Below, one piece after another: positions 1,834 through 11,190 of a stretch of DNA of 64,000 bases. A program made the position numbers and the translations under genes. The notes under the pieces were generated by a model, which saw nothing but the letters and a program-made list of their open reading frames with translations, was not told the origin of the DNA and searched no databases. This DNA is from Blastocatellia bacterium UBA7656 (lineage in GTDB: Bacteria; Acidobacteriota; Blastocatellia; UBA7656): contig DLHY01000007.1 of assembly GCA_002483445.1 (NCBI GenBank), forward strand, positions 86,114-150,113. The letters run 5' to 3'. The first letter of the stretch is position 1. The number at the start of each line of letters is the position of its first letter.

Positions 1834-3957
1834 CTACCTCCGCTGAAACTCCGCAGAACCAAGCAGCAAAGAAATCGTCTGAGCCACGCGGCGCGATGCC
1901 GCAGGGTCGAGTTTCGAGCGAGTCATCATCGCCGGATTTGTCTCTCTCGATGCGCGAAGCGCGCGATCATCGACCATCGCGGGTTTAGGTTGCGGAGGAG
2001 GTTCGCTCAGACCTGCGCGCACTGCGCGGCGGCTCTCCGGGGAAAGATCGGTGTGAAGAATCAATGCAGCAAGCTTGTTCGTGAGCAGGTCTGCGTCCGT
2101 TATCGCGTCGGCGGAAACCAGTCGCGCAGGATCGTAACTCGTTCCCGCAACCTGACCCGTAGCCATCGCCGTCAGAAAATTTATTCGGTTGATAAACACT
2201 CCCGCGCTGATCCACGCTTGTGAGTTTTCGCTGTAGCCGGTCGGCGAGGGTTGTTGATAGAGCGGCTGGCCCATGCGACGAATCCATTCGTGAAGCGCAG
2301 GCGAGCCGTTCGTGTCCGCGTCAATCGCCCGAATAGCAGACGCGGCAAGCTCAAGCGGCGATTTCACCTTCGAGCGAAACGACGCGGGCGAATAAAACTC
2401 GGGCGACGCGAAAATCGCGCGCAGCACTTCGCGGATGTCGCCGTCGGTTTTCAAAAATACCTGCGCTATGCGCTCCACGAGTTGCATTGAAGGATTGTCC
2501 GAGATGAATCGCTGGCAGAGTTTTTTAGATATGAATCGCGCAGTCGAAGGATGGCGCGCGAGAATATCTATCACGCGGCGACCGTCAAGGATGCCGCAGC
2601 CCGACTTAATGCTTACGCCCAGCACGGTCTTCGCTCCCGCATCGTGCATCCACGGGCGAAAGAGGAAGCCTCCGCCTTGAAACGGGCGATCAATAGTCCA
2701 GCCCGTCAGACATCGCGCCACTTCCCGAACATCCCGCTCGGTGTATCCGCCATCGACTCCGAGGGTGTGAAGTTCCATCAACTCGCGGGCATAGTTTTCG
2801 TTGATATCCCTTCGTCGCTCAGGCGGGCGAGGCGGTTGATTGATCATCGCCGTGATATCGTTTTGCGGCATCATCGCGGGCGGCGCGGAATTGACTCCCG
2901 GAGCCGGTTGTGCGTTTTGCAGTCTGGGAGGCTGATTGGTCGACGGGCGAGGCTCGCGGGCGTCAGGCGCGGCTGAAAGCCAGTTGTCGAGGTAGTAAAG
3001 CATCGCGGGGCTTTCGGCTACCGCTTGAAGCAGATCGCGGAATCGCCCGAAGGAGTTCGGCCTGATCACGTCTCGCTCGAAGGCGGTGACCATCCAATGC
3101 ACGGCGTCTTTTTGCGCGAAGACGTTGAAGTGATTGAACCAGAAATCCGTCATCACCTCCTGAAGCTGTCGGTTGGCGGACGCGGCGCGAACGAGTTTCT
3201 GTTGAACGAGTTCGACGTAAATCTGAGTCGGGCGACCAAAGACAGGCGGCGGGTTGGGCTGCTTTTCGCGCGCTTCGATGACGTTGGGCGGCGGATAGAA
3301 CTGGTAAAGCTCCGAAGAAGTCATCCTCAGAGTCGAAAGCGCCGAAAGCCTCTGTTCGAGATCGCTGTCGTCTATCGTTTCGGGATTCAACTGCTCTTCG
3401 AGAAATTTGTTTATGCCGATCAATCGCACGCGCTCGGCATCTCCCGGGCGCGGCCCGAAGGTCGCGCGATTGAGCAGATGGATTATCTTTTGATCTTCGG
3501 TCAACCGTTGAGCGCGACCAACTGACGGGATGAGCTTTTCGGAATCGGCGAGAGCCGCGCTCACCGTCGACCGCGCGCGCGGAGCGATGTTGACAGCCAC
3601 GAACGGCGGCGGTATCGGAACAGGCAGGCGGGCGTTGAGAGTTGCGAGTTTGGTTTTCTGCTCGTCTGTCAGATGAGTGGAGAACTCTTCTCGAAATGCG
3701 CGCTGCTCCTGCTCGGCATCCATTTGAAGCTGAGGCGAAAAGGGCTGCGACCGGGCGCGGCGTTGAAGTTCGAAAACCCTGGGCGCGTGAGCGGCGAGAA
3801 TCTGCCGGAGCGCCGCGATCTGATCGGACGTGAGCGCGAGAGCCTGACTGATTCGCGTTATCATAGGCTCGAACAATCGCGCGTCCTGCTGCGCTCTGAC
3901 AGTCGGCGCGATAATCGCGCACGAAAGAATGAAGGGGAGAAGCCATCTCAATCGCAT
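1834..3957 (-). CDS. secreted DUF1800 family protein with N-terminal LTXXQ (CpxP/Spy-like) motif region
   Basis: DUF1800 hallmarks are present: LLNRATFGPRPGD, FWFNHFNVF, ENYARELMELHTLGVDGGYTE. LTxxQ motifs (LTSDQIAAL, LTDEQKTKL) follow a signal peptide (MRLRWLLPFILSCAIIAPTVRAQQ). The start was moved to the ATG at 3957, which has a GGAGG Shine-Dalgarno; the longer ORF-track start at 4215 is probably an over-extension. Confidence 0.8.
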   Translation of the reverse strand: MRLRWLLPFILSCAIIAPTVRAQQDARLFEPMITRISQALALTSDQIAALRQILAAHAPRVFELQRRARSQPFSPQLQMDAEQEQRAFREEFSTHLTDEQKTKLATLNARLPVPIPPPFVAVNIAPRARSTVSAALADSEKLIPSVGRAQRLTEDQKIIHLLNRATFGPRPGDAERVRLIGINKFLEEQLNPETIDDSDLEQRLSALSTLRMTSSELYQFYPPPNVIEAREKQPNPPPVFGRPTQIYVELVQQKLVRAASANRQLQEVMTDFWFNHFNVFAQKDAVHWMVTAFERDVIRPNSFGRFRDLLQAVAESPAMLYYLDNWLSAAPDAREPRPSTNQPPRLQNAQPAPGVNSAPPAMMPQNDITAMINQPPRPPERRRDINENYARELMELHTLGVDGGYTERDVREVARCLTGWTIDRPFQGGGFLFRPWMHDAGAKTVLGVSIKSGCGILDGRRVIDILARHPSTARFISKKLCQRFISDNPSMQLVERIAQVFLKTDGDIREVLRAIFASPEFYSPASFRSKVKSPLELAASAIRAIDADTNGSPALHEWIRRMGQPLYQQPSPTGYSENSQAWISAGVFINRINFLTAMATGQVAGTSYDPARLVSADAITDADLLTNKLAALILHTDLSPESRRAVRAGLSEPPPQPKPAMVDDRALRASRETNPAMMTRSKLDPAASRRVAQTISLLLGSAEFQRR

Positions 3958-4449: not shown

Positions 4450-7400
4450 ATGACCGGCAGGCATATTCTCATCGTCGAAGACGAAAGCGCGACTGCGGAA
4501 AATCTGAGGGCCAGCCTTGAACAGTTCGGCTATGATGCGGCTGTTGCCCGCACAAAAGAGGAGGCCGTCAGCAAAGCTCAGGAACATCGCCCCGACCTTT
4601 TGCTCATCGATGCCGCGCTGGACGAAGACGATGGGGTAGAGGCGGCGATCAGGGTACAGGCATCGTGCAATGCTCCAGTCGTGTACCTAGCCGATTACTC
4701 CGATGAAAAGTCTCTGGAGAGGATCAGAATCGCCGAGCATAATGGGTATGTCTCCAAGCCTTATGAGGAGAAGGAACTGCGCGTGGCGCTTGAGATGGCT
4801 CTCTATGATCACAGCAATCTGCTGGCGCGGGCGGAGGAAAAGATTGAGGCGAGCGAGAAGAAGTTTCAGAGCCTTTTGGAATCCGCGCCTGACGGAATGG
4901 TGGTGAGCGATCAGCAGGGAATCATCCTGATGGTCAACGGTCAGGCTGAAAAGATGTTCGGATACGGGGCCGATGAATTGCTCGGACAGCCGATTGAAAT
5001 GCTGCTGTCGGAGCGAATCAGACAGGCGCACGTCGAGCATCGCGAAAAATATTACGCCAGCGGCGTCACACGCCCCATGGGAACGGGGCTGGACATCTAT
5101 GCAAAACGCAGGGATGGAAGCAAGTTTCTTGTCGACATAAGTCTCAGCACGCTCAAATCGGACGGCGGTTTTCTCGTCACCAGCACCATCCGCGACGTAA
5201 CCATTCGCAAACGCGTTGAACAAACTCTGCGCAATAGTGAAAAGTTCGTCAGTTCGGTGCTCAATTCGCTCGCGGCCAATATAGCGGTCATAAACAAAAG
5301 GGGTGATATTCTGGCGGTCAATCAGACGTGGGAACAGTTCGCTCGCGATAATGATGGCGCGGATATTTCCCGCATCTGGGTTGGAGCAAATTACCTGGAG
5401 GCAATCCGCAAGGCTGAAGGTACGTTTGCCGAAGAAGCGCCTCGCGCGCTTGCAGGAATTCAGGCAGTGCTCAACGGCGAAACGGAGGAATTCTCTCTGG
5501 AGTATCCGTGTCATTCGGCGGACGAGAAACGATGGTTTCTGATGTACGCAACTCCGCTTGCGACCGAAGAGGGCGGCGCGGTCATCTCGCATTTCAACAT
5601 CACCGAGCGCAAGCAGGCTGAAGAAGCCCTGCGCGAAAGCGAATCCCTCTTTCGCGCTCTGGCCGAGACTTCCTCAGCGGCAATCTACATCTACCGGGGA
5701 TCGAAATACCTGTATGCAAGTCCGAGCGCCGAAACGATGACCGGCTACACGCGGGACGAGTTGCTCTCGATGGATATATCGGGGCCGATTCATCCCGATC
5801 ACCGGGAGCTTGTGAGAAAGCGATCTGAGGCTCGGCAGCGCGGCGAGCAGGTTCCTGCGCGCTATGAGGTCAGGCTGTTGACCAAAACGGGCGAGGAGCG
5901 ATGGGCTGATATAAGCGCGGCTCCCATACTGTTTCAGGGCGAGATGGCGGTGATTGTGACTTCCTTCGACATCACCGAGCGAAAGCAGGCCGAAGAGGCT
6001 ATGCGCAACCTGGTTGCGGGAACGGCTTCGGTGACTGGCGAAGAGTTTTTCGCCACATTCGTCCGGCATCTGGCGGCCTCGCTCGGCGTCCGCTACTCGA
6101 TACTGACCGAAACGGTCGACGACCGGAAAGACAGGCTGCGTATTCTGGCATCATGGGGAAGCGACAAGTTCCTGCCCAACATCGAGTACCAAGTCGCAGG
6201 CACGCCCTGCGAAGAAGTCATCAAAGAGGGCAGAGTAGTTTATTATCCCGACCACCTTCAGCAACTCTTCAGCCAGGACAGCGACCTGGTTGAGATGGAA
6301 GCGGAGAGCTATCTCGCCGCTCCACTCATCAGCCAGGCAGGGGCGACACTGGGCCATCTTTGCATCATCGATGACAAGCCGCTGCTCAACGCCGAGATGG
6401 CCCGTTCTCTGATAAGCATATTCGCGGCGAGGGCTTCAGCAGAGCTTGAGCGCAAGCGAACCGAAGAAGCCCTGCGAAAAAGCGAGGAGCGATTATCGCT
6501 GGCCCTCGATGCTGCAAGCGTGGGAACGTGGGACTGGAATTTAGTCACCGGGAAGATCATCTGGGGCGGTCATCATCACACGCTGTTCGGTTTTTCCGAA
6601 GGTCGATTCGATGGCACTTATGAGAAATTCGAGCTATGCGTTCATCCCGATGATATGGCATCGCTCAACGTCGCAGTCGCGCGAGCCAGAGATAATCACG
6701 CAGAATACGATCACGAATTCCGCGTCGTATGGCCCGACGGTTCGATCCACTGGGTTCACGGCATGGGAGCGTTTCATTACGACCAGCAGGGGCGTCCAGT
6801 AAGGATGGTCGGCGCAGTCGTCGATACGACCGAGCGCAGGAAGGCTGAAGAAGCGTTGCGCAATCTGGTGGAGGGGACGGCTTCGGCCACGGGAGAAGAG
6901 TTCTTCACCACGCTGGTTCGCCATCTGGCCGCCGCGCTCGATGTCCGCTATGCCATGCTGACCGAATCGATGGACAGCGAAGCGAAGAAGTTGCGCATTC
7001 CCGCCTGCTGGGCAGGCGACAGATTGATGCCCGACTTCGAACAAACCAATCCCAACACTCCCTGCGGCGCGGCCATCAGAGAGAAAAAGACCGTCTACTA
7101 CAAGGATCGCCTTCAGCAGCATTTTCCCGATGTCAAAGCGTTCGCTGATATGGGAGCCGTGAGCTATCTCGGCATTCCGCTTGTGAACAGATCGGGAAAA
7201 GCTCTGGGCAGTCTTTGCATTTTCGACGACAAGCCGCTGGCGGATGTCGCGCTTGCCGAATCGATTCTGAGCATATTCGCCGCGCGGGCTTCGGCTGAGA
7301 TGGAGCGCAAGCAGGCAGAGGAGTCTCTGCGACAGGCTGAAGAGCGTTATCGCTCGATCGTGGAAAACGCCGCTTATGGCATATTGCTTTCGACTCCCTC

Positions 7401-8850
7401 GGGCCGATTCCTCGCAGTCAATCCCGCAATGGTCGCGATGCTGGGCTATGAATCAGCCGAAGAATTGATGAAGGTCAACATCTCAACCGACATCTACGTC
7501 AACCCGGAAGACCGGACGCGACTAATCGAGCGTTACGTGCCGGAAGGAAGGATCGAAAACGTCGAAGTTGACTGGAAACGCAAGGACGGCTCGCTGATCA
7601 CGGTCAAGCTCAGAGGTCGCCTGATCGAGGACGAGGAGGGTAAACCCGAAAGCTTCGAGATACTGGTGGAAGATGTCACCGAGCGACGACATCTCGAAGC
7701 TCAGCTTCGCCAGTCTCAAAGGATGGAATCCATCGGTCAGCTTGCGGGCGGAGTGGCTCACGATTTCAACAATCTGCTCACGGCCATCATAGGCTATTCG
7801 GAAATCCTGTTGACGAACGTCAGCAGGGACGACCCGCGAAGAATGAGCGTGGAAGAAATCAGCCGCGCGGGCAAGCGCGCCGCCGAACTCACGCGCCAGT
7901 TGCTGGCCTTCAGCCGCAAGCAGATATTGCAACCCAGAATCATCAGCCTCAATTCAGTCATCAGCGATCTGGAAAGGATGCTCAGTCGTCTCATCGGCGA
8001 GGACGTTGAAATGATAACGCGACTCGATCCCGACCTCGGACTGGTGAAAGCTGATCCGGGCCAGATCGAGCAGGTGATCATGAATCTGGTCGTCAACGCC
8101 CGCGACGCTATGCCTCAAGGCGGCGTGCTTATGATCGAAACCATGAACGCAGAGCTTGACGAGAGCTACGCGCGCCGTCACATAGGCGTCGAGCCGGGGC
8201 CGTATGTGCTGACGGCGATAAGCGACACCGGAATAGGAATGGGCGAAGAAACTCAATCGCACATCTTCGAGCCTTTCTTCACTACCAAAGAACAGGGCAA
8301 GGGAACGGGCCTCGGCCTTTCGACCGTCTACGGCATAATCAAACAAAGCGGCGGCAATATATGGGTATACAGTGAAGCAGACAAGGGAACCACCTTCAAG
8401 ATATACCTGCCAAGAGTAAATGAAGAAGAGACAGACGAGGAGGCGGAAGCGAAGCAGATAGAAACGCCGTGCGGCTCGGAAACCATACTCATAGTCGAAG
8501 ACGAAGACCTTGTGCGCAGGCTGGCGGTTGATGTGCTTGAGGATATCGGCTACAGAGTTCACGAAGCGAAAGACGGTTTTGAGGCGCTTGAAATCTGCGA
8601 GCAGCGCAGCGAGCCGATTCATCTTATGCTCACAGATGTAGTGATGCCGCAGATGAGCGGTCGCGATCTGGCTCGAAGGGTTGCCGGCCTCAGACCTGAG
8701 ATGAAAACGCTTTACATGTCAGGCTACACCGGGACGGCTATCGTCAGTCAAAACATCATCGATGCCGAGAAGGCTTTCCTCCAAAAACCGTTCACGCCTA
8801 AGAGTCTTGCGCAAAAGGTTCGCGAGGCGCTCGATGCCAAAAGCGATTAG
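4450..8850 (+). CDS. hybrid sensor histidine kinase (REC–PAS×n–GAF×2–HisKA–HATPase_c–REC), 1466 aa
   Basis: N-terminal receiver (ILIVEDE...D). Several PAS and GAF blocks, including an internal tandem duplication (ITERKQAEEALRNLV.GTAS.TGEEFF..VRHLAA). HisKA H-box (VAHDFNNLL), HATPase_c (GIGMGEETQSHIFEPFFTTK...GTGLGLS), and a C-terminal receiver (ILIVEDEDLVRR...LMLTDVVMPQMSG). Confidence 0.9.
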   Translation: MTGRHILIVEDESATAENLRASLEQFGYDAAVARTKEEAVSKAQEHRPDLLLIDAALDEDDGVEAAIRVQASCNAPVVYLADYSDEKSLERIRIAEHNGYVSKPYEEKELRVALEMALYDHSNLLARAEEKIEASEKKFQSLLESAPDGMVVSDQQGIILMVNGQAEKMFGYGADELLGQPIEMLLSERIRQAHVEHREKYYASGVTRPMGTGLDIYAKRRDGSKFLVDISLSTLKSDGGFLVTSTIRDVTIRKRVEQTLRNSEKFVSSVLNSLAANIAVINKRGDILAVNQTWEQFARDNDGADISRIWVGANYLEAIRKAEGTFAEEAPRALAGIQAVLNGETEEFSLEYPCHSADEKRWFLMYATPLATEEGGAVISHFNITERKQAEEALRESESLFRALAETSSAAIYIYRGSKYLYASPSAETMTGYTRDELLSMDISGPIHPDHRELVRKRSEARQRGEQVPARYEVRLLTKTGEERWADISAAPILFQGEMAVIVTSFDITERKQAEEAMRNLVAGTASVTGEEFFATFVRHLAASLGVRYSILTETVDDRKDRLRILASWGSDKFLPNIEYQVAGTPCEEVIKEGRVVYYPDHLQQLFSQDSDLVEMEAESYLAAPLISQAGATLGHLCIIDDKPLLNAEMARSLISIFAARASAELERKRTEEALRKSEERLSLALDAASVGTWDWNLVTGKIIWGGHHHTLFGFSEGRFDGTYEKFELCVHPDDMASLNVAVARARDNHAEYDHEFRVVWPDGSIHWVHGMGAFHYDQQGRPVRMVGAVVDTTERRKAEEALRNLVEGTASATGEEFFTTLVRHLAAALDVRYAMLTESMDSEAKKLRIPACWAGDRLMPDFEQTNPNTPCGAAIREKKTVYYKDRLQQHFPDVKAFADMGAVSYLGIPLVNRSGKALGSLCIFDDKPLADVALAESILSIFAARASAEMERKQAEESLRQAEERYRSIVENAAYGILLSTPSGRFLAVNPAMVAMLGYESAEELMKVNISTDIYVNPEDRTRLIERYVPEGRIENVEVDWKRKDGSLITVKLRGRLIEDEEGKPESFEILVEDVTERRHLEAQLRQSQRMESIGQLAGGVAHDFNNLLTAIIGYSEILLTNVSRDDPRRMSVEEISRAGKRAAELTRQLLAFSRKQILQPRIISLNSVISDLERMLSRLIGEDVEMITRLDPDLGLVKADPGQIEQVIMNLVVNARDAMPQGGVLMIETMNAELDESYARRHIGVEPGPYVLTAISDTGIGMGEETQSHIFEPFFTTKEQGKGTGLGLSTVYGIIKQSGGNIWVYSEADKGTTFKIYLPRVNEEETDEEAEAKQIETPCGSETILIVEDEDLVRRLAVDVLEDIGYRVHEAKDGFEALEICEQRSEPIHLMLTDVVMPQMSGRDLARRVAGLRPEMKTLYMSGYTGTAIVSQNIIDAEKAFLQKPFTPKSLAQKVREALDAKSD

Positions 8851-9675: not shown

Positions 9676-9829
9676 TCCATTCTCCGAAAGAGATTGTGTC
9701 GAGGCGGACGAGTCAATATAAGGTGTCGAATGAAAAGACACAAGCGCAGGAGAGAATTGATTCTGCCGCGGTTGACACTTCCCCGCTCGCTTTGCTAGTT
9801 TACCCATTCCTTCGCGAGAAGGAATTTGA

Positions 9830-10147
9830 TCCTGAGTAGCTCAACGGTAGAGCATCCGGCTGTGACGATGGAAAATCGCAGCTTCCACAGGCGACTGTGG
9901 TTGAAAAATCGGGTGAATTCAGGAAACCCTAAACCGACGCGAGTCGGCATGGCAATCCTGAGCGAAGCCTGCTGAAAGGCATCACAGTAAGCAGGAACGT
10001 GCAGAGACTTAGGGATTGAGGAGCCTGACCGATAAAATCCCGTAAGCGCCCGACAACTCTCAGAGTTGATGAGATAGTCCGCGCCTGAGCGAAAGCTCAG
10101 GATAAAGCGTAACCGGAGGGTTGTAGGTTCGAATCCTACCTCAGGAG
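9830..10147 (+). tRNA. tRNA-Thr(CGU) gene interrupted by a group I intron (exon 1 9830-9861, intron 9862-10107, exon 2 10108-10147); no encoded CCA
   Basis: Acceptor 5' tcctgag pairs with 3' ctcagga. D-arm gctc/aacggta/gagc. Anticodon stem tccgg...ccgga. Spliced loop cU|CGUAA with anticodon CGU. T-arm gtagg/ttcgaat/cctac. The intervening 246 nt end in G and contain group-I-like elements. Confidence 0.75.
9862..10107 (+). ncRNA. group I (IC3-like) self-splicing intron within tRNA anticodon loop
   Basis: 5' exon ends in U33 and the intron ends in G. An R-like element (gtgCAGAGACUuagg) and an S-like element (gatgAGAUAGUCcg) can form P7 (GACU/AGUC). A P9 hairpin cctgagc-GAAA-gctcagg sits just before the terminal G. 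A GNRA-capped hairpin gccgac-GCGA-gtcggc is also present. Confidence 0.7.
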
Positions 10148-10154
10148 CTTTTTC

Positions 10155-10196
10155 AAAATCCCTGCGGATCGTTTTACCCGCAGGGATTTTTCTTTG
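10155..10196 (+). terminator. rho-independent terminator after tRNA
   Basis: Hairpin atccctgcgg / ccgcagggat followed by a T-run (tttttctttg). Confidence 0.7.
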
Positions 10197-10209: not shown

Positions 10210-11190
10210 TCATAAATTGACGAATTTCATCATCGCTTCCGGGTAACGTGTTCCCGCTGCTGCTCCCTGCGGCGCAATCTCGTTGATGAGCGCGAGGTCT
10301 TCCTCAGACAGTGTAACTTCTGTCGCGCCCGCATTCTCTTCAAGATACTCGCGCCGCTTGGTTCCGGGGATGGGAACGATGTCATCACCCTGCGCCAGCG
10401 CCCAGGCCAGAGCGAGTTGTGAGGGAGTCGCATTCTTCGACCGGGCCATCTCTGTTATTCGCTCGACCAGTTCGAGATTCTTCTTGAAGTTTTCTCCCTG
10501 AAAGCGCGGCGAGTAGCGGCGATAATCATCCTCGGCAAGGTCATCGAAACTTTTTATCTGCCCGGTGAGAAAGCCTCGTCCCAAAGGGCTATAGGCCACG
10601 AATCCGATTCCTAGCTCGCGCACGACCGCGAGTATCTCGTCTTCGGGGTCGCGGCTCCACAGAGAGTATTCCGTTTGCAATGCGCTGATGGGATAAACCG
10701 CGTGCGCCCGACGTATGGTATCAGGCGCGGCTTCGCTTAGACCGAGGAACGACACTTTGCCTAATCTGACGAGTTCGGCCATCGCGCCGACGGTATCTTC
10801 TATCGGCACACTGGTGTCTACGCGATGCTGATAGTAGAGATCGATGTGATCTATGCCGAGTCGTTGCAGCGAAGCATCACATGCCTCGCGGACGTATGCG
10901 GGATGGCCATCGATCCACCTGAGGTCTCCGCTTCGACGTATGCCGAATTTGGTGGCGACGACGACCTGATCGCGGCGTCCGCGAATGGCTTTGTTTATGA
11001 GTTGTTCATTCGTATAAGGGCCGTACATATCGGACGTATCGAGGAAATCCATACCGAGATCGAGAGCGCGATGAATGGTGGCTATGGATTCGTTTTCATC
11101 CGTCGGGCCGTAGAATTCCGACATGCCCATGCAGCCGAGTCCGATACAGGAAGTAATAAGACCTTGCGTTCCTAACCTGCGCTTTTGCAT
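10210..11190 (-). CDS. aldo/keto reductase (AKR, Tas/YajO-like)
   Basis: [26 protein letters not shown]....[16 protein letters not shown]; typical AKR length of 326 aa. Confidence 0.9.

Follow-up and report, generated by a model that had tools for sequence, protein, structure and literature searches.

A split tRNA gene at window positions 9830–10147

The DNA analysed here is a 64,000-nt stretch of contig DLHY01000007.1 (Blastocatellia bacterium UBA7656; hereafter, the window), which contains on its forward strand a tRNA gene that spans exactly positions 9830–10147 and whose two halves lie 246 nt apart. The Rfam group I intron model RF00028 matched positions 9854–10101 with a score of 78.1 bits (gathering score 50, E value 3.7e-18) over model positions 1–253 of 253, untruncated, and this was the sole Rfam match across the 64-kb window. 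An initial annotation, made from the sequence alone, had proposed that a group I intron splits a tRNA gene here. The significant full-length match to the covariance model, the covariation of the intron helices and homology to introns that have been spliced experimentally uphold that proposal: the split is genuine, and chance falls far short of explaining it. The host tRNA and the splice sites are not those first proposed. The locus very probably encodes a functional tRNA-Asn(GUU), with an intron of 246 nt inserted between U35 and U36; the intron has no open reading frame (ORF) and belongs to a known lineage of tRNA-Asn 35/36 introns. The gene is laid out as follows.

9830–9863, + strand: tRNA-Asn 5′ exon (positions 1–35), ending in C32 U33 G34 U35 (ARAGORN on the spliced construct; BLAST alignments to intronless alleles stop at 9863; CTGT in 57/57 homologues)
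9864–10109, + strand: group I intron, 246 nt, ORF-less, between anticodon positions 35 and 36 (RF00028; homology to published tRNA-Asn 35/36 introns; helix covariation)
10110–10147, + strand: tRNA-Asn 3′ exon (positions 36–73), beginning with U36 A37 A38 and ending with the discriminator base G73 (ARAGORN, intronless homologues and BLAST)

The tRNA-finding program ARAGORN reported no tRNA in the whole window in its default mode. With the intron option, it reported a tRNA-Thr(CGU) with splice sites after U9861 and G10107, and, when given a construct spliced at 35/36, it returned tRNA-Asn(gtt). The cloverleaf arms, checked on spliced constructs, are as the initial annotation described them. CCA is not encoded after G73, and the 3′ exon is followed directly by CTTTTT. 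The unconstrained fold of positions 9856–10117 yields the paired regions P1, P2, P3, P4–P6, P8 and P9 in the layout of a group I intron, with a minimum free energy 3.8 standard deviations below that of dinucleotide shuffles (z = −3.8). Nine acidobacterial homologues score 69–93 bits on RF00028.

The intron lies between anticodon positions 35 and 36

Two splice registers are offered by the sequence of the gene. In the first, which the initial annotation adopted, the 5′ splice site follows U9861 and the 3′ splice site follows G10107, which gives the loop cuCGUaa of a tRNA-Thr(CGU) with an intron at 33/34 (9862–10107). In the second, the splice sites follow U9863 and G10109, which gives the loop cuGUUaa of a tRNA-Asn(GUU). 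Under either register, the intron is 246 nt long and ends in G, the preceding exon ends in U (position −1) and the cloverleaf is perfect, so that the quality of the cloverleaf cannot tell them apart; these properties, together with the choice made by ARAGORN under its intron option, are what speaks for tRNA-Thr(CGU). The evidence described below places the splice sites 2 nt further on, after U9863 and G10109. The initial annotation was right about the length of the intron, 246 nt, but only because its two boundaries, both wrong, move by an equal 2 nt.

Homologues were retrieved with a core pattern built from published sequences, which yielded at least 120 loci; these and the intronless loci considered below carry locus labels (L017 and so on). 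Covariation was assessed in a MAFFT alignment of 57 sequences, comprising the window and 56 ORF-less members of the tRNA-Asn type. In the Rfam alignment, the conserved splice-site U of the model is U9863, wobble-paired to G9878. The guide helix that the initial annotation expected to end at U9861 was found, with U9861 paired to A9880 and the splice-site wobble at U9863·G9878. Pair counts in the 57-sequence alignment gave the U35·G wobble in 57/57 homologues and a Watson–Crick U33–A pair, likewise, in 57/57.

The 3′ boundary points to the same register. The terminal G (G10109) is present in 57/57 sequences and is followed by an invariant TAA, whereas the equivalent of G10107, which the 33/34 register requires as its terminal G, is T, C or A in 32/57. 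This base, two positions before the terminal guanosine (omega-2), is G only where its partner in the joining region J7/9 is C or U. Such covariation explains G10107, which is a base of P9.0 paired to C10082. Among the matches listed, only 29 of the 76 Asn-type members could use the 33/34 register; the other 47 cannot.

A third line of evidence came from intronless tRNA genes on metagenome contigs, which were searched for the D-arm, anticodon stem and T-arm of the window gene, any triplet being allowed as the anticodon (NNN). All 117 genes with the tRNA body of the window have the anticodon GTT, the pair U1:A72 and the discriminator G73, and none has CGT. Three of them (L150, L159 and L240) are identical at 72/72 positions to the tRNA-Asn product, and the Rfam tRNA model gives such genes 74 bits. 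BLAST alignments of the window to the intronless loci stop at 9863 and restart at 10110, the two pieces being contiguous in the subject, which places the intron at 9864–10109 without recourse to ribozyme rules. A search of the metagenome loci for an intronless allele flanked as in the window found none, the match being confined to the tRNA itself. The annotated tRNA-Asn of Escherichia coli also has U1:A72 and G73. The U1:A72 pair singled out by the initial annotation is thus present, but it is an ordinary trait of tRNA-Asn rather than a peculiarity of this gene.

The tRNA is therefore Asn(GUU), not Thr(CGU). A tRNA-Thr(CGU) host was rejected on the absence of CGT from the 117 intronless genes, on the U33–A pairing and on the missing terminal G in 32/57 homologues, and the probability that we attach to it is negligible. 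The confusion has a precedent: ARAGORN and tFind often annotate tRNA-Asn genes with an intron at 35/36 as tRNA-Thr with an intron at 33/34, through a 2-base shift, in a lineage for which 35/36 splicing has been confirmed experimentally (Nakagawa 2026, mSystems, PMC13011429). The initial tRNA-Thr call reproduces this documented artefact.

In the Blastocatellia-type clade (the window, L017, L010, L024, L043, L054, L079 and L089), the omega-2 base is always G, so that both registers are formally available there. A minor, cryptic splice at U33/G10107 would join an Asn tRNA body to a CGU anticodon that reads a Thr codon. We regard such splicing as extremely improbable; if it did occur, recoding at a low level would be built into the gene.

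Architecture and covariation of the intron

The helices of the intron and the strands that form them are listed here.

9858–9883, + strand: P1, in which the exon/intron strand 9858–9865 pairs with the internal guide sequence 9876–9883 (5′ splice site set by U9863·G9878; Rfam alignment)
9885–9900, + strand: P2 hairpin, 6 bp, GCGA loop (all 6 pairs vary on both sides; 99.4% of cells paired)
9909–9915, + strand: P3 5′ strand, partner 10047–10053 (100% of cells paired; two outer pairs covary, inner pairs fixed by the search pattern GCGCCC)
9919–9961, + strand: P4–P5–P5a domain, with P4 at 9919–9924/9956–9961, P5 at 9928–9929/9951–9952 and P5a at 9934–9947 with a GCGA loop (covariation)
9962–10000, + strand: P6 (9962–9964/9998–10000) and P6a (9968–9973/9990–9995) (covariation)
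10004–10009, + strand: P7 5′ strand (the R element, within CAGAGACU), in which 10004 and 10006–10009 pair with 10076–10080 and A10005 is bulged (direct complementarity)
10012–10041, + strand: P7.1-like extra hairpin between P7 and the 3′ strand of P3, with a conserved internal UGAGGAGCC...CCGAU (insertion relative to the Rfam model)
10047–10053, + strand: P3 3′ strand in the GCGCCCGA region, partner 9909–9915 (P3 pairing)
10054–10068, + strand: P8 hairpin, 6 bp (5 of 6 pairs covary; 88% of cells paired)
10072–10080, + strand: P7 3′ strand (the S element, AGAUAGUCC) (complementarity to the R element)
10081–10108, + strand: P9.0 (G10081–C10108 and C10082–G10107) around P9 (10084–10090/10095–10101, GAAA loop) (covariation)
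10109, + strand: omegaG, the last intron nucleotide (G in 57/57, then TAA; BLAST to intronless alleles restarts at 10110)

The fold and its conservation are evident in the alignment of the 57 homologues. Standard pairs occupy 94.3% of the pair cells, compared with 35–45% when the 3′ partners are slid by 1–3 columns; 61 of the 89 pairs vary on both sides, and the observed values were attained in 0 of 500 shuffles. All of the core helices are present and are 88–100% paired across the family, with covariation in the outer pairs of P3 and in P4, P6 and P8. In P1, the pairs C32–G, U33–A and G34–C are invariant (57/57), and two pairs on the intron side covary (AU in 35, GC in 8, UA in 4 and others). 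P4 is 98% paired, with three covarying pairs, and the pairs of P5a covary as well; its C9934–G9947 pair is replaced by U–A in L017, a compensatory change. In P6, the pair G9964–C9998 alternates between CG (31) and GC (26), and P6a covaries in 6/6 pairs. The alternation at G9964–C9998 sets the register of P6, and the register given by the minimum free energy fold was rejected.

Several landmarks named in the initial annotation could be placed on this structure. The R-like CAGAGACU (10002–10009) and the S-like AGAUAGUC (10072–10079) form P7 as proposed, and the GNRA-capped hairpins are P2 (loop GCGA, 9891–9894) and P5a (loop GCGA, 9939–9942). We take G10006–C10079 to be the guanosine-binding pair, by analogy with P7 of Tetrahymena. 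The hairpin capped by GAAA, at 10084–10101, is indeed present, but it does not adjoin the terminal G as had been stated: 8 nt follow it (10102–10109), of which 10107–10108 lie in P9.0. P9 covaries in 7/7 pairs. The P9.0 pair 10081–10108 is AU in 43 and GC in 14 sequences, with 0 mismatches among the 57, and the pair 10082–10107 is AU in 24, CG in 23, GC in 5, UA in 2 and UG in 2, with 1 mismatch. The pairs of the P7.1-like hairpin covary, yet only 61–69% of their cells are paired, in a region where the MAFFT alignment is poor. A helix between P7 and the 3′ strand of P3 is typical of subgroup IA.

A member of a known lineage of tRNA-Asn introns

The initial annotation regarded the occurrence as unusual and possibly new, which proved to be an overstatement. 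In Williams 2020 (10.1101/2020.01.27.920355), the known settings of group I introns in bacterial tRNAs are widened from 4 to 21 classes, and these include ‘Asn.4Ug’, which that pipeline at times miscalled ‘Thr.2Ug’ according to Nakagawa 2026 (PMC13011429). The tRNA-Asn 35/36 class was thus catalogued in 2020, and its self-splicing was shown in 2026, when a tRNA-Asn intron from Saccharimonadia was found to self-splice in vitro precisely at 35/36 (PMC13011429). In complete genomes, 35/36 introns were reported from Patescibacteria, Cyanobacteriota, Nitrospirota, Bacillota_A, Bipolaricaulota and Pseudomonadota; Acidobacteriota appear in the same published table with subgroup IC3 introns in tRNA-Leu(UAA) only, and none at 35/36 (PMC13011429). 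A search of the literature on tRNA-Asn or Acidobacteria group I introns returned nothing relevant beyond these two studies.

Over its whole length, and with the same boundaries, the window intron can be aligned with the sequences of the class published in Table S5 for Nitrospirota, Bipolaricaulota, Cyanobacteriota and Patescibacteria. The Saccharimonadia intron that was spliced experimentally shares the same architecture, at 57% identity overall. The class and the window have in common the host tRNA and the insertion between U35 and U36, the invariant exon end CUGU paired to the guide GCAGC, the core blocks GGGUGAAUU, CAGAGACU, GCGCCC and GAGAUAGUCC, the same order of helices including the hairpin between P7 and P3, and the same arrangement of P9.0 and omegaG; both are prone to the tRNA-Thr 33/34 miscall. 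The window intron differs from the published members in its host phylum, in its very short P1 loop and in having no endonuclease gene. The kind of element is already known, and the window intron is one more member of a widespread, poorly annotated lineage.

The lineage appears to be distinct from the classical IC3 introns, to which the initial annotation likened this one by calling it ‘tRNA-type’. IC3 introns occupy position 34/35 of tRNA-Leu(UAA) in cyanobacteria, plastids and Acidobacteriota, 33/34 of tRNA-fMet, and 36/37 of the tRNA-Ile(CAU) of Azoarcus and the tRNA-Arg(CCU) of Agrobacterium. Like them, the window intron is a small (~200–300 nt), ORF-less ribozyme of the anticodon loop with a U·G wobble, an omegaG and a GAAA-capped P9, and the two-step, guanosine-initiated chemistry is presumably the same. 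The insertion position and the host tRNA, by contrast, differ. The J3/4–P4 segment reads GGGUGAAUUCAGG in the window and CUCAAAUUCGGGG or CAGGG in the IC3 entries of Table S5, and the 30-nt hairpin between P7 and P3 is absent from those entries. In Table S5, the published relatives of this intron bear the label IA1 or IA2 rather than IC3, the nearest being IA1, and 25 of the 28 introns at 35/36 were classed as subgroup IA (Nakagawa 2026, PMC13011429). The window intron would thus fit subgroup IA rather than IC3, by a label inherited from its homologues and by one structural feature, the extra hairpin.

Host, selection and transcription of the split gene

The closest relative among the matches listed is L017 (JBFMAU010000119.1, ‘Acidobacteriota bacterium MAG146’; MAG, metagenome-assembled genome), which matches the 318-nt split gene at 95.6% identity and in which the genes upstream are syntenic, with 80–85% nucleotide identity. 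The next closest among the matches listed are Pyrinomonadaceae and Blastocatellia genomes, at 80–84%. These relatives mark the host as an acidobacterium, in agreement with the initial guess, and place it probably in or near Blastocatellia. The gene differs from that of L017 at 14 positions, of which 11 are unpaired, two form the compensatory pair in P5a and one is an indel in a junction (binomial P = 0.009). Differences that avoid the helices or compensate for one another are the pattern expected of a ribozyme under selection.

Candidate signals for expression flank the gene on both sides.

9772–9801, + strand: candidate promoter, TTGACA (9772–9777), an 18-nt spacer and TAGTTT (9796–9801), ending 28 nt upstream of tRNA position 1 (read from the sequence)
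9806–9825, + strand: 5′ leader hairpin, 8-bp stem ATTCCTTC/GAAGGAAT with a GCGA (GNRA-type) loop, 4 nt before tRNA position 1 (read from the sequence)
10155–10195, + strand: candidate intrinsic terminator, stem 10155–10167/10178–10190 with the GC-rich core TCCCTGCGG/CCGCAGGGA, a 10-nt loop and a T-run (RNAfold, −21.2 kcal/mol)

The region 9731–9829 is identical to L017 at 87 of 101 positions, and the sequence just upstream at only 10 of 31. The leader hairpin, which RNase P presumably cuts away with the rest of the leader, has an identical stem in L017 and a loop changed from GCGA to GCGT; the terminator stem is likewise conserved there, with a different loop. The candidate terminator lies between the tRNA and a convergent aldo/keto reductase ORF (10210–11190, − strand). 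Conservation of the promoter block, the leader hairpin and the terminator stem in L017, where the neighbouring sequence is not conserved, suggests that the split gene may be a stand-alone transcription unit.

These observations bear on whether the locus could be a decaying element, in which the intron is dead, the locus is a tRNA-Asn pseudogene and an intronless tRNA-Asn elsewhere in the genome does the work. A second tRNA-Asn copy could lie outside the 64-kb window, which holds no other tRNA. Decay, however, is hard to reconcile with an untruncated, full-length match to the covariance model, with every core helix intact, with substitutions relative to L017 that spare the helices or are compensatory, with exons identical at 72/72 positions to intronless genes, and with a conserved promoter-like block and terminator stem. 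Moreover, intron-bearing and intronless copies with the same anticodon are rarely found together in one genome (Nakagawa 2026, PMC13011429). We consider a pseudogene very unlikely.

The upstream genes shared with L017 encode a PAS/GAF hybrid histidine kinase and an ABC ATPase (Pfam). The kinase (4450–8850, + strand) is a hybrid sensor kinase of 1,466 aa with three PAS regions, a GAF domain, HisKA/HATPase domains and two receiver domains; it is syntenic with L017 and has no apparent tie to the intron. A match to the Rfam small RNA family Acido-Lenti-1 (40.5 bits, against a gathering score of 37) lies at 3051–3097 on the + strand of L024, a Pyrinomonadaceae MAG, ~1 kb upstream of its split tRNA-Asn; Rfam gave no Acido-Lenti-1 match in the window.

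Proposed route of splicing

The features described above allow a route to the mature tRNA to be proposed. The gene would be transcribed as its own unit, from the conserved promoter-like block to the conserved terminator hairpin, and the intron RNA would fold into P1–P9. The guide 5′-AUCGCAGCU (9875–9883) would pair with the exon end ...GGCUGU and the first intron bases, presenting U9863·G9878, and an exogenous guanosine bound in P7 would attack after U35. P9.0 (10081–10082/10107–10108) would then place omegaG10109 in the same P7 site, after which the 3′-OH of U35 would attack behind omegaG, joining U35 to U36 and restoring the loop CU-GUU-AA. RNase P, 3′ trimming and CCA addition would finish the tRNA.

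Several points weigh against this picture of an active intron at 35/36. Its catalytic activity is predicted by homology to members that were spliced in vitro, and identity to the experimentally spliced Saccharimonadia member is only 52% over the intron columns. P7 and the inner pairs of P3 were fixed by the retrieval pattern, so that covariation is uninformative there; P7 is invariant in the family because the search demanded it. A P10 pairing of the guide sequence with the 3′ exon was looked for, and nothing convincing was seen. Both candidate transcription signals went uncalled by a consensus scanner, the promoter because its weak −10 hexamer fits the consensus at just 3/6 positions and the terminator because its loop is longer than 8 nt. 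The inherited subgroup label adds to these reservations.

Some of them also touch the question of whether splicing in vivo is autonomous. With the boundaries and the tRNA as assigned here, the intron might need a host protein (an RNA chaperone or a maturase-like factor) or be subject to conditional regulation. Many group I introns require the help of proteins in vivo. Besides the lack of a clear P10 pairing to the 3′ exon, there is competition between P1 and the upper end of the anticodon stem, both of which use 9858–9859. Regulatory roles have been the subject of speculation (Nakagawa 2026, PMC13011429). Against such dependence, GTP alone was enough for the in vitro self-splicing of two introns of the 35/36 class (PMC13011429), the window intron has a complete core with stabilizing peripheral hairpins capped by GNRA loops, and no sign of a dedicated cofactor gene was seen in the window. 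Dependence on a host factor or on regulation is unlikely on this evidence.

Distribution of the lineage and its endonuclease-bearing members

The scan recovered at least 75 tRNA-Asn loci with an intron at 35/36, spread over many phyla and including at least 13 acidobacterial species-representative genomes. Among the matches listed, the intron is also found in Nitrospirota, Myxococcota/‘Deltaproteobacteria’, Binatia, Bacillota, Ignavibacteriota, Bacteroidota, Planctomycetota, Elusimicrobia, Omnitrophota, Cyanobacteria and Patescibacteria; identity of the window to the Nitrospira loci is 71–78% by BLAST. One further contig with a tRNA-Asn 35/36 intron is labelled ‘MAG: Klebsiella pneumoniae’ (L100, CAMBFS010000088.1) and, given the distribution of the family, was probably mis-binned.

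Longer introns form a second group within the lineage. Among the matches listed, 17 tRNA-Asn 35/36 introns are 536–578 nt in length, and ~10 of them hold in the P1 loop an intact ORF of 92–166 aa with the motif C..C...HH...CANCHREVH. The long or ORF-bearing loci include L079 (4429–5052 region; Blastocatellia), L033 (Acidobacteriota BP_34), L056, L030, L071, L085, L007, L086, L112 and L117. Four ORFs were tested against Pfam: those of L079, L033 and L056 (Heliobacteriaceae) matched the HNH endonuclease family (PF01844) at or above the curated cutoff, and that of L071 (Nitrospiria) matched no Pfam family. The HNH-bearing 35/36 introns, reported from Patescibacteria in Nakagawa 2026 and found here in L079 and L033, share the ribozyme core and the insertion site with the window intron, and L079 and L033 are among its closest relatives (78–84% identity). 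They differ from it in the P1 loop, where they have an ORF of ~100–130 aa with the HNH domain, bringing the intron to ~550 nt; the P1 loop of the window intron is 10 nt long, with no ORF or remnant. The window intron has lost every trace of the HNH ORF and, lacking an ORF, has no means of homing by itself.

Two loci, L054 (2358–2734, − strand) and L116 (5690–6085, + strand), have introns of 304 and ~320 nt. Their P1 loop holds an apparent 3′ end of an HNH ORF (...TGCGCCAATTGTCATAGAGAAGTTCATGCTGGA = CANCHREVHAG; alignment columns ~60–115), and they appear to be endonuclease genes caught in the course of deletion.

In the published complete-genome sample, subgroup IA introns at 35/36 that bear homing endonuclease genes occur in Patescibacteria only, with more predicted in draft genomes (Nakagawa 2026, PMC13011429). 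We lean towards the view that the tRNA-Asn 35/36 lineage, including its HNH-bearing copies, is common in soil Acidobacteriota and in many other phyla, rather than centred on Patescibacteria.

The same core pattern was also seen in other tRNAs. At least 19 loci, mostly from Burkholderiales and Planctomycetota/Isosphaeraceae (including Singulisphaera acidiphila and Comamonas testosteroni), have a single site compatible with U(−1) and omegaG, at the putative position 36/37 of a tRNA with a CAU anticodon (Ile2 or Met); they include L003, L005, L006, L026, L028, L036, L041, L046, L049, L055, L058, L066, L097–L099 and L105. ARAGORN miscalls nearly all of these CAU-anticodon loci, mostly as tRNA-Gln. 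In Myxococcota (L004, L060, L061, L063 and L077), the pattern lies in tRNA-Leu(UAA) genes, where the lone compatible site is the putative 33/34, not the 34/35 classical for IC3 introns.

Implications

The split gene introduces no new mechanism or kind of element, and its value lies in the corrected identity of the tRNA and the corrected splice sites. The scan modestly widens the picture drawn from published complete genomes, by placing the tRNA-Asn 35/36 lineage in many phyla, with HNH genes in some members outside Patescibacteria. For annotation, the consequence is direct: standard tools either miss such a gene or call it tRNA-Thr(CGU), so that the genome would seem to be without a tRNA-Asn and might be credited with a spurious tRNA-Thr as well.

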